From: a virus
Lineage: Duplodnaviria; Heunggongvirae; Uroviricota; Caudoviricetes
Direction: 5' to 3' (one strand)
DNA: 36,043 bases
IMG/VR virus record: IMGVR_UViG_2693429599_000012
Location: 1-36,043 of that record
The notes under the pieces are model-generated. The model was not told where the DNA came from and ran no database searches. It saw only the letters and a list, made by a program, of their open reading frames with translations. A program made the position numbers and the translations under genes. This document shows, in pieces, positions 1-35,052 of this stretch; position 1 is the stretch's first letter; each line of letters starts with the position of its first letter.

Positions 1-351
1 ATGCGAGAGACAGTCGAAATTATGCGTTATCCCGTCACTCTTACACCCGCGCCGGAAGGCGGTTATATGGTTTCTTTTGTGGATATCCCTGAAGCGTTGA
101 CCCAGGGCGAAACTGTCGCTGAAGCGATGGAAGCGGCAAAAGATGCTTTACTGACCGCATTTGATTTTTATTTTGAAGATAACGAGCTTATCCCTTTACC
201 TTCGCCATTAAATAGTCACGATCACTTTATTGAAGTACCTTTGAGCGTCGCCTCTAAGGTATTGCTGTTAAATGCTTTTTTACAGTCAGAAATCACTCAG
301 CAAGAGTTAGCCAGGCGAATTGGCAAACCTAAATGTTGTAAACCCCAATAA
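1..351 (+). CDS. hicB: HicB-family antitoxin-like protein, C-terminally truncated or divergent
   Basis: ORF from ATG at 1 (alternative ATG at 22, MRYPVTLTPAPEGGYMVSF...). The first ~105 aa match my recollection of enterobacterial HicB through ...ITQQELARRIGKPK, then the ORF ends with CCKPQ-stop instead of continuing through the C-terminal DNA-binding region. No hicA is in the window. Confidence 0.6.
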   Translation: MRETVEIMRYPVTLTPAPEGGYMVSFVDIPEALTQGETVAEAMEAAKDALLTAFDFYFEDNELIPLPSPLNSHDHFIEVPLSVASKVLLLNAFLQSEITQQELARRIGKPKCCKPQ

Positions 352-720: not shown

Positions 721-1019
721 GATTTGCCCTCGCGTGAAAAATATTTTCGATTATTTATAAAAAAGACTTGACAAAATCAAAAGGTACTGTTCCACGGGTG
801 AAATAAAGCGAGTTTTCGGCACCCCGGTATTTGATGTGCGTGTGAGATTTCAAAACAGGTGCAGTGCAGCCCACCAGCGCGGTCGCTACGCGACTATTAA
901 CACCAGCCAATCCCTTTCCCTGCCTCGATCTTTCCCTTCGTTATAAAGCGTTTTAGGCGCTCTCCTGAATGCGCAGATCAGATAAATAATTTTACGCAAA
1001 TTTAATGGAGGATAACCGG

Positions 1020-1574
1020 ATGAAAGAAGAATTAACCCTTACAGAAATTTCCCGCTTATACGGCTATACAATTAACGCCGCTAAGAAATGGTTAGAAAGG
1101 GGTCTACCCTATAATACCAATAGCCGTCGCGTGCCAGCCAAAGAAGGAACAGAATGGGTCCTAAAGAACATCATCAACCCGCTTAAAGAAACTACGGTCA
1201 AGGAACAAATCGACGTAGAGAAATTGCGACGGGAAAGAGCATTAGCAGATGCAGCCGAACGAGAGAACCAGGAAGCGATGAATCTCCTGATTCCCGTCGG
1301 GTATGTGGAGCAGGAGCTAGCGGAATACTGCGGGAAAGTGAAGCAGACTATTTTGCAGATCGCCACAATCGACGCTTTAGAAATTCTCGAATCTGCGAGT
1401 GACCAGAAAACATTAAAGAATAAGCTAAGGGAGATTATCGAGCGTCGTTTAAATGAAGTAGGTGACTTGTTCGAAAATGCAGATTTGGGAGAAGACGAGG
1501 AAGAAGAATTACCATTAATGGATGAACCGGAAGAACAAGAACCAGAAGAAGACGATGAATTTGATGTGTCTTAA
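1020..1574 (+). CDS. Nu1-like DNA-binding protein, candidate terminase small subunit, with acidic C-terminal tail
   Basis: GGAGGA RBS 7 nt upstream of the ATG at 1020 (ORF track starts at 1005). N-terminal HTH-like LTLTEISRLYGYTINAAKKWLERGLPY and a following EKLRRE segment resemble lambda Nu1 architecture. C-terminus is strongly acidic (EDEEEELPLMDEPEEQEPEEDDEFD). Confidence 0.45.
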   Translation: MKEELTLTEISRLYGYTINAAKKWLERGLPYNTNSRRVPAKEGTEWVLKNIINPLKETTVKEQIDVEKLRRERALADAAERENQEAMNLLIPVGYVEQELAEYCGKVKQTILQIATIDALEILESASDQKTLKNKLREIIERRLNEVGDLFENADLGEDEEEELPLMDEPEEQEPEEDDEFDVS

Positions 1575-2215: not shown

Positions 2216-2240
2216 GGGACTCTTCGGAGTCCCTTTTTTT
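2216..2240 (+). terminator. Rho-independent terminator with TTCG tetraloop, possibly bidirectional
   Basis: GGGACTC-TTCG-GAGTCCC followed by TTTTTTT; it abuts the stop codon of the convergent minus-strand gene. Confidence 0.65.
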
Positions 2241-3180
2241 ATTGGCAGTAAGAAAAGTTAGTACCGTACATTTCATCATGAAGCATTGCAGCATTGCGTT
2301 TCTGTTCTTCTTCCTCATCTTCTACATCACTAGAAAAATGAGATTTGCCCTTAAAAGAACGAAGTAATTGCAGTGCAGCCATCGGATCACGCATCACATC
2401 GATTTTCACTTCTACTTCATCATTTGCGGCCTCATCAGCCGCGTTTTCAACTACTGCCACCGGAGCAACTTCTTTAGCTTTCAGTTCTTCAATTTCAGCT
2501 TTCTGGGCTTCGATAATCTGGTCTTTTTCTTCCAGTGCAGCTTTCAGTTCTGCGATCTGTGCTTCCAGTGCAGCAAAGCGATCTTCAACAACCGGAGAAA
2601 CAGCATTCACCTGTGCTTCCAGTTCCAGAAATGCTTCGCAAGATTCAATACGTTCTTTCTCTTCACCTTCATAAGCAACCAGTTCTACAACTTCTTTTTC
2701 GGTAGCGTGGCTGTTAAAGAAAACAGCAAAGTAAGGATTGCCGGATTTAGTGAAGTTCAGTTTAGCTTTTCCGGTAACTTCTTTACGACGACCGAAGGTG
2801 ATCTGGCAATCAGCGGTATCCTGAAAATCCATGTTAGGAGCGGAAACGATAGCAGTATCACCAGCAATAACCAGGTGGAACAGTTCAGAAGAGTTCTTAA
2901 CGGTAAAAGTAACGATGTGGTCTACTGCAACGTCTTTAGCAGGTTTAACGCGGTCGATTGCTTTACGAATGCCGTTAGGCAGTTTACCGTCAACACCAAA
3001 GCCAGCCGCGATCAGTGCTTCACGATGTGCTTTAAAGCCAGCGAAAGCGGATTTCTGCTGTGCAAAGGAAACATGAGCAACAACTTTCGGCTGAATCTTC
3101 TTGTTTGCTTCGGTGCCAAATTTGATAACTGCTTTAGCGTTGGTTACTTCGTTAGTGAAAAAGTTAGCGGAAAATAACAT
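2239..3180 (-). CDS. Hypothetical protein (~313 aa): N-terminal globular region, central coiled coil, acidic C-terminal tail
   Basis: GGAG RBS upstream of the ATG at complement 3178-3180 (the ORF track extends to 3243 but the internal start has the RBS). Heptad-like segment AALEAQIAELKAALEEKDQIIEAQKAEIEELKAKE and acidic DVEDEEEEQ tail. No family assigned. Confidence 0.55.
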   Translation of the reverse strand: MLFSANFFTNEVTNAKAVIKFGTEANKKIQPKVVAHVSFAQQKSAFAGFKAHREALIAAGFGVDGKLPNGIRKAIDRVKPAKDVAVDHIVTFTVKNSSELFHLVIAGDTAIVSAPNMDFQDTADCQITFGRRKEVTGKAKLNFTKSGNPYFAVFFNSHATEKEVVELVAYEGEEKERIESCEAFLELEAQVNAVSPVVEDRFAALEAQIAELKAALEEKDQIIEAQKAEIEELKAKEVAPVAVVENAADEAANDEVEVKIDVMRDPMAALQLLRSFKGKSHFSSDVEDEEEEQKRNAAMLHDEMYGTNFSYCQ

Positions 3181-3291
3181 TATAAATACTCCGTGGAAAG
3201 TTAGTTTTAATTGTTCATCGCAAAAGCCTCCTTGTTGCCGCAAGGGGGCTTTTTTATTTTTAAAGCCATCATATAATTCTCAGTCAAAGTA

Positions 3292-3474
3292 TCAGTAAAC
3301 CTCGGCGGTAATCTTTACTTTAATGTCATACTTCTTTAAGAGTTTATGAAAGGTTGATTTATCGATACCCTCATTTTTAAACCACTCTTCAATTCTCACA
3401 CCCGGCGTTAACTCAAAGTAGCGTTTAGCCATTTCTAAGATGATTTCGCGAGTGAACTTAACAGGTCGTGCCAT
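3292..3474 (-). CDS. Small HTH DNA-binding protein (60 aa), resolvase/Hin-type HTH-like
   Basis: Sequence MARPVKFTREIILEMAKRYF...GIDKSTFHKLLKKYDIKV; paralogous to the 6619-6852 product and to the C-terminus of the 6881-7483 product. Confidence 0.55.
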   Translation of the reverse strand: MARPVKFTREIILEMAKRYFELTPGVRIEEWFKNEGIDKSTFHKLLKKYDIKVKITAEVY

Positions 3475-3514
3475 CTCGAATCCTCCTACAATGTGGATTA
3501 ATGATTTCTTAAAA

Positions 3515-3529
3515 AAGAGCGTTAACCGC
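3515..3529. promoter_or_regulatory. Perfect palindrome GAGCGTTAACCGCTC upstream of the small HTH gene; candidate operator
   Basis: 5-bp inverted arms around TTAAC, about 40 bp upstream of the minus-strand start codon at 3474. Confidence 0.3.
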
Positions 3530-3993
3530 TCACTATTATTTATATGGGGATTGTATTTTATTTTTCAACCCCTCACATTTATCTCTTATATATGTATTTA
3601 TAACAGAGATATGTTAAAATGTTATTCAGATGTTATCAGACGTGTTAAATGTGTTAAACCGCAGCACGAATTGCTAAAGAGAAGAACACGAATTAACCAA
3701 ATTGATGTTTATTCAATCAATTTAGAAAAATGCATAGCACTTTTTGCTAAAGCGGTGAGCATTAATTGAGCTATGAATTGTAAAGATTTGTTACAAGATT
3801 TTCTCTCAGATCCAAATCTTAACAGACATATAACAATTTAACATGGTGATAACAATAGGAAGGAAAATCGGTAAATTTTCACTTTCAATACAAATATTAT
3901 AACATATTTATCTCGAATTGTCAAGTATACCACCGATCCTACACAGTGTCAACAAAGGATTTTCAAACCTACACTAACCCTACACTATGAAAA

Positions 3994-4233
3994 TTGCCCC
4001 CGAATTTTTGCCCCCGAACAAAATCCCCAAGATTCTACTATCCCATTTTTGCCCCTGAAACCCTATATTTTTGCCCCTGAAATTCTGGGACACGGTGATT
4101 TTGCCCCTCATTTTTGCCCCTGAAATGCCAATAATTGCCCCTGAAAATCTAATTTTTGCCCCTGAAATTTGCCCCCGAAAAGGATTGGTGAGAAAAACTC
4201 TTTATAAAACATTAACTTAGCGAGGGGCAAAAG
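3994..4233. repeat. Iteron-like array: 9 direct copies of TTGCCCC(T/C)GAA(A) plus one inverted copy
   Basis: Direct copies start at about 3994, 4008, 4049, 4071, 4101, 4114, 4135, 4156 and 4169; inverted copy GAGGGGCAAAAG at 4222-4233. Spacings are 13-14, 21-22, 30 and 41 bp. Confidence 0.8.
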
Positions 4234-4320
4234 CGGGGATCGGGCGTGCATAGATATTATATAACACATTCGCTACGCTCATGTGTAAAACCAAAAACAA
4301 CAAATAACCAAAAAGATATT

Positions 4321-4368
4321 AGGAGGGCGTAGCCCGACTGCGCGAAGCGCCAACCAATTACTTCTAGT
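4321..4368. repeat. Copy 1 of a duplicated ~45 bp element (GGAGG..CG.AGCC.GACTG ... CCAAT.ACTTC)
   Basis: AGGAGGGCGTAGCCCGACTG...CCAACCAATTACTTC, related to 4751-4795 (AGGAGGCGAAGCCGACTG...ACCAATCACTTCC). Confidence 0.5.
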
Positions 4369-4381
4369 AACACTAATTTAA

Positions 4382-4604
4382 ACTAGATGATACTAGATGG
4401 TCTTAGAAGGAATTAACTAGTTTGCTCGCTCGCTTCGCTCACTCTCAAACGTCTGCGACGCCACTGCGTGGCATCGAGAATCACTTTTGAAAGGATTTTC
4501 TTAGAAAGGGATTTTAAACTAGTTACTAACTGATTCTAGAAAGATAGTAATAATCACTTTGAAGATAATAGTAGTTAACTGGTTACTAGATGATTCTAGA
4601 TCAC
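4382..4604. repeat. CTAG-rich repeat family (ACTAGATGAT(A/T)CTAGA and ~27 bp units AACT(A/G)GTTACTA..TGATTCTAGA)
   Basis: ACTAGATGATACTAGATGG at 4382-4400; units at 4517-4543 and 4577-4604; palindromic AACTAGTT at 4414-4421. Confidence 0.6.
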
Positions 4605-4750
4605 TTTAATGATCATGAAAGGTATTGGTATCCCTTCGGGATTGCAACCTTCGGTTGCTAAATTGCTTCCTGATTATAATTTCTCCAAAAGAAAGATTCT
4701 TATATTCTAAAGATACTTCTTCGTTTTGATGATGATTTAATCAAAATCTA

Positions 4751-4795
4751 TGAAGGAGGCGAAGCCGACTGAATACCAATCACTTCCAAATTAGA
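4751..4795. repeat. Copy 2 of the duplicated ~45 bp element
   Basis: See 4321-4368; lies about 70 bp upstream of the 4863 gene. Confidence 0.5.
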
Positions 4796-4862
4796 CAAAA
4801 ATTTCTCGTTATAAATAATAGTGAACTTACTTTGATTCACTTTCTTTTAGAGGATTACCACT

Positions 4863-5315
4863 ATGATCAATACTAAAACTCCTTTCGTACTTCTGGGTCT
4901 GAACCATGATGATAATCTGGATATGATGCATGTTTTCGCTAATCGTGGTTATAACATCATTCGTCATTCCGAAGACTCCAATTTCTCAACTGCTTTCTAT
5001 GCTTTTAAACGTAATGGACGCCCTACGGTGATCGTAGACTGCTTTACTGATGAAGGTCGTGAACAATACAACAACATTCCGGCAATTATTGTTCGTGATG
5101 ACCTGCCTTTTGATGTTCGTGAATATGACGTTGATTTAGGCTCTTACTACGGGATCGCGGATCTTGACCAGATTATGGCTGATTATGGTAAACAACCCGC
5201 TCAGGAAGCCCCAGAACACGATGAACAAGACGAAGATGACGACGACTACACACCAATCTGTTTCTCTTCTCACGGTGGCTTCTACGGTTACGATGAAGGC
5301 TTAGATATGCTGTAA
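4863..5315 (+). CDS. Hypothetical acidic protein (150 aa)
   Basis: GAGGA RBS; C-terminal acidic run QEAPEHDEQDEDDDDY; first plus-strand gene after the repeat region. Confidence 0.55.
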   Translation: MINTKTPFVLLGLNHDDNLDMMHVFANRGYNIIRHSEDSNFSTAFYAFKRNGRPTVIVDCFTDEGREQYNNIPAIIVRDDLPFDVREYDVDLGSYYGIADLDQIMADYGKQPAQEAPEHDEQDEDDDDYTPICFSSHGGFYGYDEGLDML

Positions 5316-5672: not shown

Positions 5673-6500
5673 ATGAATACTGTTACTACTATGAATACCG
5701 CTGTTAAAACTGCTTCCGTGTCTCTGGTTGTTGATAACACCAAACCGCTGACCATGTCTTCTCGTCAGATTGCTGAATTTACCGATAAGAAGCACAGCAA
5801 TGTAATGCGCGATATTCGCGAAATGTACGAATCTTTAGGTATTATCGATCAGCTCAAAACTGAATTTGTCGAGAGAATCAATAACTTAGGATATGCTGTT
5901 AAAGAACCAGTATATCACTTAGACGAAGAAATGACGCTGACTCTTGTCACTGGTTACGATGTTAAGCGTCGAATGGTTGTTATTCAGGAATGGAAGCGAC
6001 TGAAAGAAGAAAATGAAAAACTGCGTCAGGAACGTTTAGCCGTTAACCCGTATGCAGACTTTGAAGAAACCGACTGGATCGAACTGGCATTAAAGAAAAC
6101 TCGCGAAAATAAAAAGCTGATTGAACTTCATGTTCGCAAATCAGTAGATAGCCATTCAATGACCCGTCTGTTAGGCGCTAAAAAGGGCGCTACGAAGGTT
6201 AAAGAAGCACTAACGGCCTTGCGTACTGCTGGCTACATTGAGCGCGTCTACGATGAAAATAACAAGCCGTGTGGGTATGTTGCTAATGACTCTTCTCTGT
6301 CTTTCTGCCGCATGAATGCTCACTACCAACTTGAATTTACTGTTGATGTTCTTCCTGTGTTGGTTGAATTGGGTATTCTGGAAGAAGAACAAAAAGCAAC
6401 TCTGAATCTTCCTAAGCCGAACAACACTATTCTGATTCAAAACAAAGCGGCTGAACGTCTCCGCCAGAATGTTGGATCACTGGAAGTCTTCGGACTGTGA
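5673..6500 (+). CDS. Rha-family phage regulatory protein / antirepressor
   Basis: N-terminal motif LTMSSRQIAEFTDKKHSNVMRDIREM is typical of the phage pRha domain; AGGGGGA RBS; terminator downstream. Confidence 0.75.
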   Translation: MNTVTTMNTAVKTASVSLVVDNTKPLTMSSRQIAEFTDKKHSNVMRDIREMYESLGIIDQLKTEFVERINNLGYAVKEPVYHLDEEMTLTLVTGYDVKRRMVVIQEWKRLKEENEKLRQERLAVNPYADFEETDWIELALKKTRENKKLIELHVRKSVDSHSMTRLLGAKKGATKVKEALTALRTAGYIERVYDENNKPCGYVANDSSLSFCRMNAHYQLEFTVDVLPVLVELGILEEEQKATLNLPKPNNTILIQNKAAERLRQNVGSLEVFGL

Positions 6501-6618: not shown

Positions 6619-6852
6619 TCAAAAACCTGTTGCTTCTACGATCTGACCATCACCGATCTGAACATAGAATTTAATGTCTAACTTCTTCATATTCTTATAG
6701 AATTGGGCGATTGAGATCCCATGTTCACTAAGAATCTGTTCTTTCGCTTCCTTACCACGATCCGCTGTATAGTAAGCGTAGGCAATATCAGCCATCTGTT
6801 CAGCGTTAAAACGGGCAGGACGACCGCGAGTAGCTTTAGTAGTCATAGTCAT
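6619..6852 (-). CDS. Small HTH DNA-binding protein (77 aa), paralog of the 3292-3474 product
   Basis: RGRPARF motif plus HTH GISIAQFYKNMKKLDIKF aligning with GIDKSTFHKLLKKYDIKV. Confidence 0.55.
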   Translation of the reverse strand: MTMTTKATRGRPARFNAEQMADIAYAYYTADRGKEAKEQILSEHGISIAQFYKNMKKLDIKFYVQIGDGQIVEATGF

Positions 6853-6880: not shown

Positions 6881-7483
6881 TTATTTAGAGGACTTACATT
6901 TTATCGGAAAAAGTTCTCCATCGTCAATACTCATAAAGAACTCTGCCTTAATCCCGTACTTCTTCAACCGTGAATAGTATGTACCCCGACTTATATCAAC
7001 CTTGCGAAGCACTTCAAAGAACCCTTTAGGATCGTTGTAATAGTGGCTATAACGCACGTTAGCGAGTTCTACAAACAATTCCCTTGTATCACCATAGCCT
7101 TTCTTGAATGCCTCGTTACGATAGCGTGTAACAGCGTGATTCAATCTCTTCTGTTTCAACACTTCTCGGATCGGCTTCCATTGCAACCGATAGACCGGAC
7201 CGTCATCAATCCTGTAAAACCGCTTGATATCAAAATCAAACCAATCTCGGACTCTCTGGAACTCTGTATGTGATGTTCTATGCTTCTTAAAGAAGTTGTG
7301 AACGTCTGTATAACCATTATCGCGGTAAAACTCTATTAAAATCTCTTTCGCTTCCTCACGACTAAAGCCAGATGTTGTGTAGTCGGTTTTTAAATGCTTA
7401 TGCTTAACTGGTAAACGATATTCATGATCGGTACAAGACAAGGCTAATTCTAATTCATCTCTTTGTTGTTGATTAATTAGCAT
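6881..7483 (-). CDS. Hypothetical protein (200 aa) with C-terminal HTH of the same family
   Basis: C-terminal ISRGTYYSRLKKYGIK matches the HTH of the two small paralogs; N-terminal domain unassigned. Confidence 0.5.
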   Translation of the reverse strand: MLINQQQRDELELALSCTDHEYRLPVKHKHLKTDYTTSGFSREEAKEILIEFYRDNGYTDVHNFFKKHRTSHTEFQRVRDWFDFDIKRFYRIDDGPVYRLQWKPIREVLKQKRLNHAVTRYRNEAFKKGYGDTRELFVELANVRYSHYYNDPKGFFEVLRKVDISRGTYYSRLKKYGIKAEFFMSIDDGELFPIKCKSSK

Positions 7484-7570: not shown

Positions 7571-9475
7571 ATGAAACTAATTTCTAATAAGGCCAAATTA
7601 AAAAAGATTCTTAAAAATATCTCTGCTGCAATTCGACCGCCTAAAGCCATGAAACCTAGCGAATGGGTAGAGGCTAATGTAGTTGCTACCGATGGTGTTA
7701 AAGCCGGATCGCTAATTAAATTGCATCCCTTCCAACGTGGAATGATGGACGCGATCACCGAAGACCGTAGAAAAATTGTGTTTAAATGTTCGGCGCAGTT
7801 GGGTAAGACCATGATTCTTAACGGAATTATCTTCCATCGGATCGCGAGTAACCCTACTAATATTGGGGTCTTGCAAAGTAACGTTAGGGAACTAAATTCT
7901 TGGATCGCTGGTAAGGTGAAGCCAGTATTAGAGGCAACGCCAGAATTAAAAGCGATGATCACCGACAAATCAGATCGCAATGCCGTTAACAACTCATCGA
8001 TTATTCAGCTTCGTAACGGATCGTTTATGTATTTCATGTCGTTGAATAGTCCGTCACATCTTCGCGGTAAAACACTCCCTTTGATTATTCTTGATGAAGT
8101 TGATGCGGCTGATGAGTCAGACGAAGGGAACCCGATCCAGCTAGCGGAACAACGCGCAACCACTTTCGGGGAAGATGCAAGGATCGTAATTGCTTCCACT
8201 CCAACCGCTCGTGATGGGGCGATTAACCAACAATGGGAACTCTCGGATAAGAGAAAATATCATGTCGTTTGCCAGCATTGCGGACACAAGCACGTAATGG
8301 AATGGAGTAACGTACATTTCGATTGGCATACGATTAACGGTAAATCATTACCCAACCCAGATACAGCCGTTTACCGTTGCCCTGAATGTGAAACCGACTG
8401 GACCGAAGGGGATCGCCTCCGTGCTGTTGCTCAGGGAGAATGGGTCGCCACCGAACCTAATGCGGAAGTAATCGGTTTTCATGCTAACCGCCTTATGTCT
8501 CCGTTTAGTTCTATCCGTGCGTGTGTGGTGGACTTTGCTGATAGCTACGCGAATATGTCGCTGGCAACGTTCTATAATGTGGTGCTCGGTGAAACCTTCG
8601 ATGATCTTAACGAAGATCGCACAGCCGACGAACTGGAAACGCTGAAAACTGATATTAGCCTAGACAATATTCCTGATGATGTACTGGCTCTGGTAGGTGG
8701 AGTTGACCAGCAAAAAGACCGTCTGGAATCTACCTTGCTGGGTATCTCTCGTAAGGGGATATGCGTAGTTGATCACCGATCATTCTATGATGTGAACTGC
8801 GAACGCCACGAATCGCCAGCATATGACCAGCTTTATAACTTCCTGAAAGCGAAATTCTATACCCGATCCGGTGAACGAATCCCGATGCTATCTGCTTTCG
8901 TGGACTCATCGAACGGACGAGCTACAAACGTGATCTACCGTTTTTGCACTAGGTGGCAAAACCTATGCGCCATTAAAGGCGCAAGTAATGCTGATGCTCC
9001 AATCCTTCCGGCTAAGGACACAAGAACGGGTGGTTTTACCCTTAAAATTCTGGGCGTAAACAACCTTAAAACGATGATCCGTGAAATGATTAACCGGAAC
9101 TTGAGAGACAGCGATCCTCATACGGTCTTCCAGATTGGCGACGTTCCTGATGACTATTGCGAGCAATTGCTTTCTGAACAGTTGAAACGGCAGGGTAATA
9201 CCACACGTTGGGTAAAAGTTGGTCAGCAACGAAACGAGGCTCTCGACTGCCTGGCTTATTCCTATGCTGCTTCTCGCCATGTACTCAATAAAATGTCATG
9301 GGAAAAACTCGAAGCCATCAAAGATAGTTTGAACCGTGAACCAGAAGAATCCGTAGAAGCTCCTAAATCGCAATCTGACGAGAAAATAGAAGAAACTAAG
9401 CCAATCACACGACCACAACGTAAAAACATCGCCAGACGCCCAAATAGAGGCCGTAGCTGGGTAACATCGTTCTAA
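7571..9475 (+). CDS. Terminase large subunit (lambda GpA-like)
   Basis: Walker A-like KCSAQLGKT and Walker B-like LIILDEVD; HPFQRGMMDAI near the N-terminus; 634 aa; positioned upstream of the portal gene. Confidence 0.85.
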   Translation: MKLISNKAKLKKILKNISAAIRPPKAMKPSEWVEANVVATDGVKAGSLIKLHPFQRGMMDAITEDRRKIVFKCSAQLGKTMILNGIIFHRIASNPTNIGVLQSNVRELNSWIAGKVKPVLEATPELKAMITDKSDRNAVNNSSIIQLRNGSFMYFMSLNSPSHLRGKTLPLIILDEVDAADESDEGNPIQLAEQRATTFGEDARIVIASTPTARDGAINQQWELSDKRKYHVVCQHCGHKHVMEWSNVHFDWHTINGKSLPNPDTAVYRCPECETDWTEGDRLRAVAQGEWVATEPNAEVIGFHANRLMSPFSSIRACVVDFADSYANMSLATFYNVVLGETFDDLNEDRTADELETLKTDISLDNIPDDVLALVGGVDQQKDRLESTLLGISRKGICVVDHRSFYDVNCERHESPAYDQLYNFLKAKFYTRSGERIPMLSAFVDSSNGRATNVIYRFCTRWQNLCAIKGASNADAPILPAKDTRTGGFTLKILGVNNLKTMIREMINRNLRDSDPHTVFQIGDVPDDYCEQLLSEQLKRQGNTTRWVKVGQQRNEALDCLAYSYAASRHVLNKMSWEKLEAIKDSLNREPEESVEAPKSQSDEKIEETKPITRPQRKNIARRPNRGRSWVTSF

Positions 9476-14513: not shown

Positions 14514-15347
14514 ATGAATATTACACAAGATAACTTAGACATTTTCACGGGGTCACATGTTGAAGTCTCCGTGTCTACTATGGTGGATAACCAGCCGGAC
14601 TTTTTCGATCCTGCATTTAGTCCTATCGAGAACATCGCAGCATTCCCTACGATCACCGAATCTACAGAGATCCAGACGTTAGAAGAGTATGACCAGGACG
14701 CTACGGGGAAACTTGCTGGTTATCGTAAACTGGAACCGACAACACTCACGTTAAACCGTGTTCTGGATGACGAACATCAAGACATGTTGATGAAAGCGGT
14801 GAATGATAAAACACCTTTACGCTTCCGAATGTTCTATGTTGTGAACTCTGGCTATAGTGCTGCTAACACTGGTTACTATGTCATCTATGATGCTTACGTC
14901 ACATCACATAAAACCCGTGGTAGCGATAACAAAGTTACTACCATCGAATTTAAATTAGATCCTGATGGTGGGATTCTCGACCGTGGTATTGCCACCGAAG
15001 GCCGGATCTTACGTCAAGGTGATTTTGGTTTGGGTGCTGGTGTACATCCATTCACAGGTCCGATTGATAGCGAAGCATTAGCCGGAAACCGTTTCGTAAC
15101 TTATCAGGGATCGAGCGCATCTAATCCATTTAGTGCTGATACTTCACTAATTCACGTTCAACCTAATGAAGATGGTGGATGGCAATTAACTTGCACCGCT
15201 TCCGGCGCACCACGTTTACGAGTTCGCACAGTCCAGAAAGACGGTAATTCTGGATGGGTGAAAGTGTATTCCACAGAAGAAAAACCGACACCAGCCGAGA
15301 TTGAAGCCGTTTCTATCCATGACCGGATCGACTTCGGGGAATACTGA
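14514..15347 (+). CDS. Tail protein with lambda gpV-like N-terminal pattern and C-terminal extension (candidate major tail protein)
   Basis: The N-terminal ~140 aa follow a major-tail-protein-like pattern; the C-terminus carries EEKPTPAEIEAVS, shared with the downstream fiber (GDKPTPAEIGAYS). Confidence 0.4.
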   Translation: MNITQDNLDIFTGSHVEVSVSTMVDNQPDFFDPAFSPIENIAAFPTITESTEIQTLEEYDQDATGKLAGYRKLEPTTLTLNRVLDDEHQDMLMKAVNDKTPLRFRMFYVVNSGYSAANTGYYVIYDAYVTSHKTRGSDNKVTTIEFKLDPDGGILDRGIATEGRILRQGDFGLGAGVHPFTGPIDSEALAGNRFVTYQGSSASNPFSADTSLIHVQPNEDGGWQLTCTASGAPRLRVRTVQKDGNSGWVKVYSTEEKPTPAEIEAVSIHDRIDFGEY

Positions 15348-31172: not shown

Positions 31173-31754
31173 TTAGAATATGCTGGCGACGTTAGCTATA
31201 TTTCTGACCATTTTTTCATTATAAACAAACGTTTCTGTAGCACCTTCTTTAATATCAAAATCACCTTTTACTAGGTTTTTCTTGATAAACAATTCTGCCG
31301 CGTATGCGTCTTTTTCGTCTTGAAATTCGAAAGTCTCGATGATATCAAATTTCATCTTATTCTGGCATCTTAGCTTATGTTTTCTCGTCAACACATTGTG
31401 ACTTACTCCAACCTTACCCACATCACCACACCGCATAACATATAATACTGGTTGCCCATTTTTATATTTGTTGTCATATTTGCTACGATTACACGGGCAC
31501 ACAGTAGGATTATGTAAGAATTGTTTTGCTGTTATATCTCTGATTCTTGCGCAGCTTTCACACTCTAGCACAATACGGCTATTGATTGATTTATACTCAC
31601 CTTTGAATCCGTGATAAATCAAGGGTAAACCCTCGTTTTCAATACGGGTCACGATCCTTGCTTCCATATCAATTGGATGTGATGGCGCTTTGCCATTTTT
31701 GGTGCGGATAAAATTGAACGGGATATCACATGCTTTGCGCACATCATTCATCAT
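31173..31754 (-). CDS. GIY-YIG / T5orf172-like domain protein with Cys-rich N-terminus (homing-endonuclease-like)
   Basis: GTGAGG RBS then ATGATG start at complement 31752-31754. Cys cluster CESCARIRDITAKQFLHNPTVCPC; C-terminal YVMRCGDVGKVGVS...GATETF resembles GIY-YIG motifs. Paralog of the 32283-33281 product. Confidence 0.5.
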   Translation of the reverse strand: MMNDVRKACDIPFNFIRTKNGKAPSHPIDMEARIVTRIENEGLPLIYHGFKGEYKSINSRIVLECESCARIRDITAKQFLHNPTVCPCNRSKYDNKYKNGQPVLYVMRCGDVGKVGVSHNVLTRKHKLRCQNKMKFDIIETFEFQDEKDAYAAELFIKKNLVKGDFDIKEGATETFVYNEKMVRNIANVASIF

Positions 31755-31794
31755 AAAAAACCTCACTTAATTTATCTTATAGGCATTACCTTTA

Positions 31795-32247
31795 ATGTTG
31801 ATGATCGAGTTCGTAGAAACCGAATTAACTAAACTGGCTTCCGAAATGGAAGAAGAAACTCCGGCAGAAGGAACCAGTATTAACGATCTTATTCTGGCAG
31901 CAGACACCGCAGATGATAAAGTGGTATTCGACGAAGTTGATCCGTCTCTGGTTGAAGCAATGAAAGAACCTGAGATCGTCATTGAAGAAACAAAAGAAGA
32001 ATCTCCAGCAGTTGAACCAGTGGTCGAAGAAGTTAAGTCAGATGTTGAAGAAGCACCGGAAGTTAAAGTGGAATCTCCGGTAGCCAACATTTTCTCTGAC
32101 GAAGCAGAGCATCGTTCCCCAGCACATGACACTGATTCATTTTGCGATCTTACTGGCTTCCGTCCGACCATTTGTTTGATCGGTGGCGGTCGTGGTTACT
32201 ACTCCTGCCCGTGGTCTTCAACCATTACAACAAATTTTTCTCAATAA
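31795..32247 (+). CDS. Hypothetical acidic protein (150 aa)
   Basis: Glu/Asp/Pro/Val-rich (EETKEESPAVEPVVEEVKSDVEEAPEVKVE); start codon choice uncertain. Confidence 0.4.
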   Translation: MLMIEFVETELTKLASEMEEETPAEGTSINDLILAADTADDKVVFDEVDPSLVEAMKEPEIVIEETKEESPAVEPVVEEVKSDVEEAPEVKVESPVANIFSDEAEHRSPAHDTDSFCDLTGFRPTICLIGGGRGYYSCPWSSTITTNFSQ

Positions 32248-33354: not shown

Positions 33355-35034
33355 TTAAATTCCAAATTCCTGTAATGGACCTGGTATTTCCTCTTCTGGT
33401 TTCCAGTTCTTATCTGTCAGCATGTCTAAACATGGATGCAAAACAAGCCCGTTACTTTCCAGAATCTGTCTATCATTGATAGTTTTCAAATCAACGAAGA
33501 TCCGGCCTTTCCTCGGTCCTCTTGAATTTTCTATTACAACTCTCTGGGTCTTGCCATCGATGTATTCCAGTACAAACAAGTTTTTGTACTTGTCAATCCT
33601 GCTACACCCGATCCGTTTTAGAGCTTGCTTAATCTTAAACCGGACCTTAATGCGATCCTCGTTGTAAACATCTTCTAAATCAAATTCTGCGAGCTTCTCC
33701 CAGCCTTGAGAGTCAACAGAATACATTTCCTCTTCTGCCATCTTAATTTGATTGTAGAGTGTTTCACGCTCGCTATTGAGGGTAGTAATCTGATCGGCTA
33801 GCTCCTTCGTTGCTCCTGTCATAGCAGAAAGGGTAATCAGGTTATCAATCTTGCGTGATATTTCATCAATCTGTACTTTCAAAGCCGGAACCGGATTAGC
33901 CTTATCCTCAGCAATCCAGATTTTATCAGCCAGCAATTGCAATACAGCTTTCTCTAATTGATCACCTCGAAAACTCCAGTTTGTATGCACACATGCAATA
34001 CGACTAGAGCGCATTGCATCGCATGAATAACGATATTGGTTAGGACGTTTGTTAGTTCCTTTCACCTTAACCATAGCGGAACCGCAATGTTCACATTTCA
34101 ATAGACCAACACCACTAAGCAAGGGAATAGGTTTAACTTCTTCCTTGTCTCCATAGTTACATGCTCTAACACCAATGCTTTTCTTAAGGTGATAAAACTC
34201 AGCGTCATCTAGCACACGAGGATAATAATCCTTTAACTCATACTTAACGCCATCTACAGAGATTTCCTTGATACCAATCAAAGCGCGGGTATGGAACAAC
34301 CTTTCAATCATTGCCCGTGACCAGTTTGAATGCCTCTTGTGACTTGCGGCTGGTGGTGGTGTGTATGTCGCGTTAAGGTGATCCAGTATCTCGGCGGTTG
34401 ACCGTCCATTCCTGCGTAATTCCACAACTTCCTGAACAATAGGGAAGAAGACCGGATGAGGAAGCACATAACCAGATGTGGTATCAGTCCACCACATATT
34501 CTTTCCAATTTCCTCGATTGCAACAGCCGGATTTTGTGGATTTTCTTGATGAGCTTTAATCTTAATCAATGCGCTTGAGTTAGTACGATTGCGCTTAGTC
34601 TGACTTTCCTCGTTAGCTCTCGCAAACAACATGACACTCAACAGCAAATCAATAGGATTGGCATTAACCGATTCCTTGCTATAGACCTTACCATCCATGC
34701 CAGTTACGATAGTTATTCCCCTACGGATAATCGAGAGAAATAGCTCTTGTGCTTCAATGATGGATTGGCGAGAGATACGGTCTAAGTTTTCCACAACCAG
34801 CCAGCTACCAACCGGAACGGATCGACCAATCTCATCCAGAAAGCGAGATAGTGCACCTGTTCTACTGTTAGCCCCTTTGAATGCAGATACACCAAAATCC
34901 TGATAGCTTGTAACTAGCTCAAGATCATATTTTGCGGCTATCTCTGCGGCTGTTCTCTTCTGGCGTTCATAAGAACTACCATCCGCTTGCTTCATAGACG
35001 AGAAGCGAATATACGAATACAGTTTAGTTTTCAT
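33355..35034 (-). CDS. Large serine recombinase (integrase-type)
   Basis: N-terminal resolvase-type catalytic motif YSYIRFSSMKQADGSSYERQ (catalytic Ser in FSS); recombinase domain; zinc-ribbon-like CEHCGS...YRYSCDAMRSSRIAC; C-terminal coiled coil. Start placed at ATG complement 35032-35034 (the track's 35049 start is TTG). Confidence 0.85.
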   Translation of the reverse strand: MKTKLYSYIRFSSMKQADGSSYERQKRTAAEIAAKYDLELVTSYQDFGVSAFKGANSRTGALSRFLDEIGRSVPVGSWLVVENLDRISRQSIIEAQELFLSIIRRGITIVTGMDGKVYSKESVNANPIDLLLSVMLFARANEESQTKRNRTNSSALIKIKAHQENPQNPAVAIEEIGKNMWWTDTTSGYVLPHPVFFPIVQEVVELRRNGRSTAEILDHLNATYTPPPAASHKRHSNWSRAMIERLFHTRALIGIKEISVDGVKYELKDYYPRVLDDAEFYHLKKSIGVRACNYGDKEEVKPIPLLSGVGLLKCEHCGSAMVKVKGTNKRPNQYRYSCDAMRSSRIACVHTNWSFRGDQLEKAVLQLLADKIWIAEDKANPVPALKVQIDEISRKIDNLITLSAMTGATKELADQITTLNSERETLYNQIKMAEEEMYSVDSQGWEKLAEFDLEDVYNEDRIKVRFKIKQALKRIGCSRIDKYKNLFVLEYIDGKTQRVVIENSRGPRKGRIFVDLKTINDRQILESNGLVLHPCLDMLTDKNWKPEEEIPGPLQEFGI

Positions 35035-35052
35035 ACCATTTCCAAACAAAAA

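Follow-up and report, generated by a model that had tools for sequence, protein, structure and literature searches.

A phased array of short repeats with a cognate binding protein is a cis element of a familiar kind. The present analysis concerns such an array, built on the motif TTGCCCCYGAA and located at 3994-4232 of a 36,043-nucleotide stretch of DNA (IMG/VR record IMGVR_UViG_2693429599_000012, positions 1 to 36,043; hereafter the window) that harbors a tailed-phage prophage of Escherichia coli. The protein that very probably docks on the array, a 313-residue protein (p313) encoded 0.8 kb away, is new, as is a prophage lineage without recognisable replication or repressor genes. Among described systems, the iteron origins (lambda ori with O, P1 oriR with RepA, and P4 ori-crr with alpha octamers) resemble the locus in their phased direct repeats, A+T-rich segment, terminal inverted copy, nearby-encoded cognate binder, swapping of initiator-site cassettes between similar phages, and variable repeat number. 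In contrast with these origins, the present sites are 11-13 bp long and lack DnaA and IHF sites beside them, the putative binder has no Rep- or O-like fold or sequence, and its gene is set apart from the array by a 0.5 kb leader and the gene for a 60-residue protein.

Arrays with other roles also share features with the locus. The P2 Cox and 186 Apl arrays, which serve the lysis-lysogeny switch of enterobacterial temperate phages through cooperative binding, contain at least six direct repeats about one helical turn apart and lie between divergent or face-to-face early promoters. Cox and Apl are excisionase-type helix-turn-helix (HTH) proteins of ~80-90 residues that also bind attP, whereas p313 is a beta-rich and coiled-coil protein, and neither a second array in the 36 kb window nor the motif at either prophage end was found. 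The c repressor of Mu and D108, with its operators O1-O3, combines a variable N-terminal domain that binds DNA with a leucine-zipper-like coiled coil and a short tail at the C-terminus, and acts at multiple degenerate sites over ~200 bp; the specificities of these sister phages differ by exchange of the N-domain. All of these traits have counterparts here, but p313 has no sequence or fold similarity to the Mu repressor, the prophage is not transposable, and the LexA-like boxes found in one leader allele of the lineage would be unexpected for a maintenance repressor. The R1 parC iterons bound by ParR, which are tandem 11-bp sites on one helical face, and the omega-heptad centromeres are matched by tandem ~11-bp iterons on one DNA face and in clusters, most clearly in a Proteus relative. 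Unlike those systems, the element is chromosomally integrated and encodes no partition NTPase and no ribbon-helix-helix (RHH) protein. Lastly, lambda cosB with Nu1 is also an array of repeated sites in a phage with a gpA-type terminase, but the present array neither adjoins terS or terL nor co-varies with TerS.

A pattern search of the window revealed eight exact copies of TTGCCCCYGAA, all on the + strand, and a single further match in the 36 kb, with one mismatch, at 14989. By chance 0.91 matches are expected, and none of 100 shuffles contained nine or more. Of ten + strand occurrences of the core hexamer TGCCCC in the window (~3.7 expected), nine fall within the array. A degenerate copy, TTGCCCCTCAT (4101-4111), and an inverted one, GAGGGGCAAAA (4222-4232), were recognised by reading the sequence, giving the nine direct copies and one inverted copy, at the same spacings, that had been reported in a first-pass annotation made from the letters of the window. 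The variant TTGCCCCTCAT holds the same rank in Salmonella L048. The full repeat unit is ~13-15 bp, (A/T)TTTTGCCCCYGAAA, and the direct copies start 14, 41, 22, 30, 13, 21, 21, and 13 bp apart, such that six sites stand on a ~21-bp grid and the three others are offset by 13-14 bp from a grid site. Helical phasing in the window array is real but modest: the resultant is 0.79 at 10.8 bp with p ~0.04 (random placements, periods of 9.5-12 bp scanned). Phasing at ~10.8 bp is present in five independent arrays and is stronger in the Proteus, Providencia, and Salmonella arrays than in the window. The A+T-rich spacer that precedes the inverted copy has a central GAAAAAC..TATAAAACAT that is kept in Salmonella arrays of the same type, and is a candidate unwinding element or promoter core.

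The arrays of relatives are labeled by motif as type T (TTGCCCCYGAA), type C (CCTACAC), and type G (TCCCCG). The TTGCCCC array is kept in 14 IMG/VR prophages, while other close relatives display a different motif at the same position. Loci L025, L026, L030, L034, L035, L040, and L041 harbor 7-11 copies of CCTACACT, and L042 harbors ~20 copies of TCCCCGY. With the same gene order, Providencia has eight copies of ACCTACACTA and Proteus has ~19 copies of ATCCCTAG in three clusters, the latter with runs of 11-bp spacing (R = 0.95) and A+T-rich ATGATTTT spacers. At least five motifs are known, namely TTGCCCCYGAA, TTTTGTCCGTGAA, CCTACACT, TCCCCGY, and ATCCCTAG. A terminal inverted copy also ends the Salmonella T arrays, the T2 array (CAGGGGCAAA), and the E. 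coli TCCCCG array (GTGGGGAAA). Copy number varies within type T, with 14 direct copies in E. coli UTME-9 (L050, 2843-3135) through an internal 107-bp duplication; 6-8 copies are seen in other relatives, by deletion of whole units. Array types can be co-resident, as one strain carries both T and C, one apparent double T is an internal duplication of the array, and three other strains show two T-type places. A scan of species-representative genomes for two copies of the motif gave nothing beyond chance pairs in unrelated taxa. The T arrays of E. coli and of Salmonella share 92-96% identity at the sites and 57-75% in the spacers, with site order and spacing kept. This cross-genus conservation supports the earlier proposal of a multi-site protein-binding platform and, judged by comparison, the array is a real, selected cis element.

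Identification of the cognate protein relies on co-variation. Alleles of 12 neighbouring proteins were tabulated across 25 distinct loci, and p313 is the only tabulated protein that follows array type: it is present at 92-100% identity in 17 of 17 TTGCCCC loci, with a detectable homologue in none of the eight loci with other arrays. The alleles of the 60-residue protein, p150, Rha, p77, p200, the TerS-like protein, and TerL assort independently of array type. An identical 60-residue protein and an identical p150 are found with both TTGCCCC and CCTACACT arrays, indicating that recombination has separated everything except the array/p313 pair. The binders put forward in the first-pass annotation (the Nu1-like TerS, the small HTH proteins, and Rha) are rejected for this reason, as is p150, because the same or nearly the same alleles of p150, the 60-residue HTH protein, Rha, and TerS occur beside different arrays.

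Homologues found via a distant relative extend the comparison beyond E. coli. In Salmonella L048 and L054, N-domains 62-65% identical to that of p313 accompany TTGCCCCYGAA in the same nine-site order with the same spacings and inverted copy. Identity falls to 45% in Salmonella L049, where the array comprises seven copies of TTTTTGCCCCT(C/G) and an inverted CAGGGGCAAA, and to 28% in Salmonella L053, with ten copies of TTTTGTCC(G/T)TGA(A/G) (the TTTTGTCCGTGAA motif). The protein of Providencia L046 has an N-domain 62% identical to the E. coli C-type protein joined to an unrelated C-terminus, and a CCTACACT array lies beside both. The p313 N-terminal domain diverges in step with the motif. That this domain reads the motif is the best-supported statement we infer, since N-domain identity and array motif diverge together. 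It is highly likely that the array is the docking platform of p313, in which the N-domain would read the motif and the coiled coil would join subunits into one complex.

p313 consists of a beta-rich variable N-terminal domain (residues 1-~175), a coiled coil (residues 182-236), and an acidic linker that leads to a short conserved motif at the C-terminus (...MLHDEMYGTNFSYCQ). An AlphaFold model based on a 13-sequence alignment displays a beta-rich N-domain with a pLDDT of 70-90 and one long helix at residues 182-236. p313 has no relative by fold in the PDB, and its predicted N-domain, which is barrel-like, gave no fold match to known DNA-binding domains. p313 has no relative in Pfam and 12 relatives among 1.84 billion representative proteins; another homologue search was filled by near-identical E. 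coli copies that lacked diversity. Together, the relatives and the model do not allow p313 to be recognised as a Rep, O-like, Cox-like, RHH, or HTH protein. The proteins that replace it in C- and G-type loci are weak homologues (BLASTP 1e-12 to 6e-9) with the same plan of ~180 variable N-terminal residues, a coiled coil, an acidic linker, and a short tail. In the relative P0131, the same coiled coil carries a different N-terminal segment that is read as a candidate ORF6N-type DNA-binding domain. Shuffling of the C-terminal modules among p313-like proteins has not followed the N-domains, and many of the proteins end in -AA or -VA (RRAA, LKAA, RKAA, DFAA, RLVA, RIVA), which recall protease-recognition tails. 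C- and G-type phages encode an additional coiled-coil protein just downstream. These features were noted in P0124, P0128, P0131, P0135, and P0137, at L042 3100-4101 and 2071-3072, and at L025 7411-7653.

Features of the array and its surroundings in the window. HTH, helix-turn-helix; p77, p150, p200, and p313, proteins named as in the text; strand as given in the analysis (., no strand).
Feature	Position	Strand	Basis
Small terminase gene (terS), phrog_57	1005-1574		PHROGs match
Gene for 94-residue membrane-like protein	between terS and p313		
p313 gene (313 residues), inferred cognate binder	2239-3180	-	comparative genomics
Gene for 60-residue HTH protein, between array and p313	3292-3474	-	
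Two overlapping consensus sigma-70 promoter-like sites	3896-3952	-	promoter scan
Three CCTACAC(T) copies	3938-3986	+	motif of C-type arrays
Direct copy 1, TTGCCCCCGAA	3994-4004	+	pattern search and sequence
Direct copy 2, TTGCCCCCGAA; 14-bp pair with copy 1	4008-4018	+	pattern search and sequence
Direct copy 3, TTGCCCCTGAA	4049-4059	+	pattern search and sequence
Direct copy 4, TTGCCCCTGAA	4071-4081	+	pattern search and sequence
Degenerate direct copy 5, TTGCCCCTCAT	4101-4111	+	sequence reading
Direct copy 6, TTGCCCCTGAA; 13-bp pair with copy 5	4114-4124	+	pattern search and sequence
Direct copy 7, TTGCCCCTGAA	4135-4145	+	pattern search and sequence
Direct copy 8, TTGCCCCTGAA	4156-4166	+	pattern search and sequence
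Direct copy 9, TTGCCCCCGAA; 13-bp pair with copy 8	4169-4179	+	pattern search and sequence
A+T-rich spacer, last direct copy to inverted copy, ~26% G+C	4180-4221	.	sequence reading
Terminal inverted copy, TTTTGCCCCTC on minus strand	4222-4232	-	sequence reading
Segment swapped along with array type	4233-4480	.	locus comparison
p150 gene	4863-5315		
Rha gene	5673-6500		
p77 gene (77 residues)	6619-6852	-	
p200 gene (200 residues)	6881-7483	-	
gpA-type large terminase gene (terL)	7571-9475		

The array/p313 pair is the best candidate for the replication origin or the early genetic switch of this phage family, and the two readings are not mutually exclusive. The favoured functional reading, with a probability of about 0.4, is that array and p313 constitute a lytic replication origin. 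The variable N-terminal domain would recognise the ~13-bp motif, and the coiled coil would link p313 subunits such that about ten sites, mostly on one helix face, are gathered into a single nucleoprotein complex that the inverted site closes. The sites would serve as iterons and p313 as an initiator, or 'replisome organiser', of a new kind. The complex is envisaged to open 4180-4221, which is A+T-rich, together with the adjacent hairpin-forming DNA, to recruit host replication proteins via the C-terminal motif of p313, and probably also to affect the flanking divergent early promoters.

The order of elements, in which phased direct repeats are followed by 42 bp of A+T-rich DNA and a terminal inverted copy, is origin-like. 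Variable copy number, a cis-encoded binder with swappable specificity, and a 60-residue protein/p313 operon with consensus promoters and, in one leader allele, LexA-box-like sites are also counted for an origin. So is the failure to recognise an initiator, a helicase loader, or a polymerase anywhere in the ~36 kb, which contains no other candidate origin and no other long noncoding region. Scans of the 20-odd non-structural open reading frames (ORFs) against Pfam, PHROGs, and NCBIfam turned up no replication protein, in line with the first-pass annotation of the window, and neither these libraries nor PADLOC matched a non-structural protein to a replication protein or CI-type repressor.

Several results count against an origin. 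A consensus scan revealed no recurrent DnaA box or IHF site beside the arrays, and the sites are 11-13 bp long compared with 17-22 bp in classical iterons. p313 matches no known initiator fold or family, such as winged-helix Rep_3 or lambda O, the structure model is of medium confidence (mean pLDDT 66), and no helicase loader was identified in the prophage. The E. coli C-type arrays show little or no phasing, and L053 shows none. A tblastn search detected no p313 relatives on 72,556 plasmids (PLSDB) or in 50,697 phage records, and hence provides no independent replicon evidence. The location of the array between divergent transcription units fits a switch equally well. The origin proposed from the first pass is a live candidate, for which DnaA or IHF consensus sites, a known initiator fold, and a plasmid relative are not found. 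As a tentative generalisation, p313-like proteins may represent an unrecognised family of phage initiators or organisers with a new beta-rich DNA-binding fold and a DnaA-box-free origin across this Enterobacterales lineage. Exchange of the N-domain would re-programme specificity, and arrays with triloop hairpins would make up an origin that serves E. coli, Salmonella, Providencia, and Proteus prophages without a known replication protein or CI-type repressor.

The strongest rival, doubtful yet a serious possibility, is an early-switch operator array that p313 coats as a repressor, activator, or insulator. p313 would then control the leftward promoters of the 60-residue protein/p313 genes, a rightward promoter just past the inverted copy, or both, in the manner of P2 Cox, 186 Apl, and Mu c, and the swapped specificities would be regulatory or immunity types. 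The array is flanked by divergent units, and the consensus leftward sites, TTGACA-17-TATAAT (12/12, with TG) at 3924 to 3896 and TTGACA-17-TATACT (11/12) at 3952 to 3924, lie 42 bp to its left and point toward the 60-residue protein/p313 genes. A conserved CATAGATATTATA ~35-40 bp downstream of the inverted copy is a possible -10 element. The protein evidence is also compatible with a switch, as the succession of DNA-binding domain, coiled coil, and short tail resembles that of the Mu repressor, the N-terminal segment of P0131 would belong to a type typical of phage regulators, many homologues have ends like those of protease-targeted regulators, and no CI-like repressor is recognisable in the prophage. 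However, the distance from the array to the leftward promoter varies from 42 bp here to ~200 bp in L030 and ~560 bp in Proteus L047, and a rightward consensus promoter was not found at the array. The 9-20 sites far exceed those of typical operators, and the motif is found nowhere else in the prophage. The LexA-like boxes of one leader allele argue against p313 as a lysogenic repressor.

These boxes belong to an alternative allele of the leftward leader, equivalent to ~3560-3700 of the window, which contains two to three LexA-box-like sites such as CTGTATGAGTTAACAG (L030 6278-6396) and is also present in L042, L048, L008, L021, L034, L035, and L041. They suggest SOS control and an induction-phase rather than lysogenic expression of the 60-residue protein/p313 operon. 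The allele of the window has no LexA-box-like sites and contains repeated TGTTA/TAACA motifs (3600-3660, 3820-3850). Equivalent consensus promoters are present in E. coli L030 and Proteus. The three CCTACAC(T) copies adjoin the TTGCCCC array on its left and cover part of the -35 region in one leftward promoter; Salmonella L049 has two such copies at the same place. Their presence beside a T array possibly reflects cross-talk between phage types or a remnant.

Additional signals are found in the transcription units on both sides. A hairpin followed by a T run at 3517-3531 (GAGCG-GTTAA-CGCTC-TTTTTT, minus strand), just upstream of the ribosome-binding site of the 60-residue protein gene, may act as a leader terminator. 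Both the 60-residue protein gene and p150 are preceded, in the same relative orientation, by a perfect 15-nt inverted repeat, TATAAATAATAGTGA (3530-3544 and 4810-4824), which suggests a control element common to the two genes. At the 5' end of the p313 gene, a strong intrinsic terminator is present on the + strand at 3222-3262, antisense to p313; a T.G wobble that only the + strand tolerates has been retained in Proteus, where the stem also shows a compensatory change. Its conservation points to rightward transcription antisense through p313, perhaps from the terS operon.

The gene-free stretch around the array was rightly noted as unusually long in the first-pass annotation, although its limits are not ~3770-4860 but 3475-4862. 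It spans 1.39 kb and is the sole long noncoding region of the prophage; the ORF at 3440-3769 is not called by PGAP or by the gene caller of the collection in identical or near-identical loci. Approximately 250-300 bp to the right of the array are exchanged together with array type. This side contains short G+C-rich hairpins with 3-nt loops, whose stems differ in a compensatory manner when E. coli and Salmonella are compared, at 4264-4286, 4325-4335, 4340-4350, and 4456-4476. The stem of the first is ACACAT/ATGTGT here, GGAATA/TATTCC in L048, and GTGTAT/ATACAC in L053 around the conserved loop TCGCTNCGCTC, and the last displays double changes at three pairs. A reading of several hairpins as UUCG tetraloops was rejected, as the pair count shows 3-nt loops. 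Both strands of the downstream region fold better than shuffles (z -4.6 and -3.3). Against Rfam 15, nothing in the window reached gathering score, and the matches in 3400-5000 were at chance level (E >= 0.37). The stretch 4264-4790 may contain a structured RNA or leader, or single-strand DNA signals. More hairpins are located at 4630-4642, 4644-4658, and 4757-4765, and the loops within 4264-4790 are GTA, GAA, TGC, and TTC; the stretch is highly conserved, a C.A mismatch is kept in one stem, and L010 and L033 do not have 4543-4770. A cluster of CTAG-containing repeats, ACTAGATGATNCTAGA and TTCTAGAAAG, is accompanied by a CTAG palindrome, CCTTTCTAGAAAGG, in Providencia and Proteus and by a recurring (C)GAAAGGGATTT motif that is conserved across genera; in the window, the repeats and the recurring motif occupy 4360-4610 and 3951, 4176, and 4487-4520. 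The CTAG repeats and (C)GAAAGGGATTT are probably sites for other conserved regulators.

The folding of both strands also counts for a reading in which the repeats act at the level of RNA or single-stranded DNA, the C-rich repeats being bound as single strands or paired with the inverted copy. Every motif type is C-rich on the same strand, copy 5 with its upstream T run is complementary to the inverted copy at 11 of 11 positions, and the N-terminal domain is beta-rich and barrel-like. The ~10.8-bp phasing nevertheless indicates duplex DNA, an inverted copy of the same motif suits a duplex-binding protein, and no promoter is predicted upstream of the array in the window, making this possibility improbable. 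A centromere-like, tethering, or titration array, with p313 as a binder or anchor similar to ParR, omega, or KfrA, is regarded as just as improbable; in the titration variant, the array would be a decoy for p313 that provides copy control or excludes related phages. The tandem 11-bp sites, clustered on one helical face in Proteus (R = 0.95), are like the R1 parC iterons, and the long coiled coil of p313 resembles that of KfrA. The element, however, is an integrated prophage with a serine integrase that encodes no ParA, ParM, or TubZ partner, plasmid relatives are absent from the search above, and the predicted N-domain is beta-rich without a fold match to known DNA-binding domains. Although a lambda gpA-type large terminase and a phrog_57 small terminase are present and lambda cosB is made of repeated sites, the packaging site (cosB- or pac-like) that the first-pass annotation had offered for the Nu1-like small terminase is very improbable, as terS is 2.4 kb upstream of the array and terL 3.3 kb downstream, with six other genes intervening, loci that have CCTACAC or TCCCCG arrays keep TerS at 92-96% identity, TerS alleles are independent of array type, and the perfect co-variation belongs to p313.

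The prophage is ~36 kb long with a G+C content of ~42%, and is inserted in hicB, the truncated E. coli copy of which forms the start of the window. Identical or near-identical loci are located between ydcO-ydcN-ydcP-yncJ-hicAB and phage genes, or within ycdX; one complete relative is a ~36 kb prophage flanked by two ycdX halves with a large serine recombinase at its right end. Insertion, in hicB here and in ycdX in other strains, is by a large serine recombinase (window 1-351 and 33355-35049; L029/L031). The region is matched in 58 of 5,426 complete E. coli genomes (~1%), and the lineage is also found in Salmonella, Providencia, and Proteus. No close sequenced phage was detected (the best TerL match is 43% identical), megablast of the region against sequenced phages gave no match, and a literature search on the prophage with its ycdX/hicB insertion returned no description. 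The terS and terL genes are 6 kb apart with control genes between them, and the small terminase is, by eye, Nu1-like with a Nu1-like N-terminal HTH. The 60-, 77-, and 200-residue proteins are paralogous HTH modules (BLASTP 3e-8 and 6e-4), the last containing two copies, and are candidate regulators in a prophage without a recognisable CI or Cro. The neighbouring orphan proteins have no match in PADLOC or NCBIfam. Gene content differs among relatives in the interval from the endolysin to the GIY-YIG nuclease (L031 20724-22771, window 31173-32171), with a DEAD/DEAH helicase and a 185-residue protein in L031 and a CapR-domain protein and a 134-residue protein in the window.

The replication and control genes of this lineage are all annotated as 'hypothetical', and the comparison assigns a concrete protein-DNA pair to the largest noncoding stretch of the prophage. 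As origin and initiator, the pair would represent a new initiator family whose protein-site specificities form a compact, orthogonal set. As a switch, it would show how the choice of lysogeny or growth is made in phages that lack a CI-like repressor. Either way, the natural series of diverging N-domains and motifs provides a system for studying the evolution of DNA-recognition specificity.
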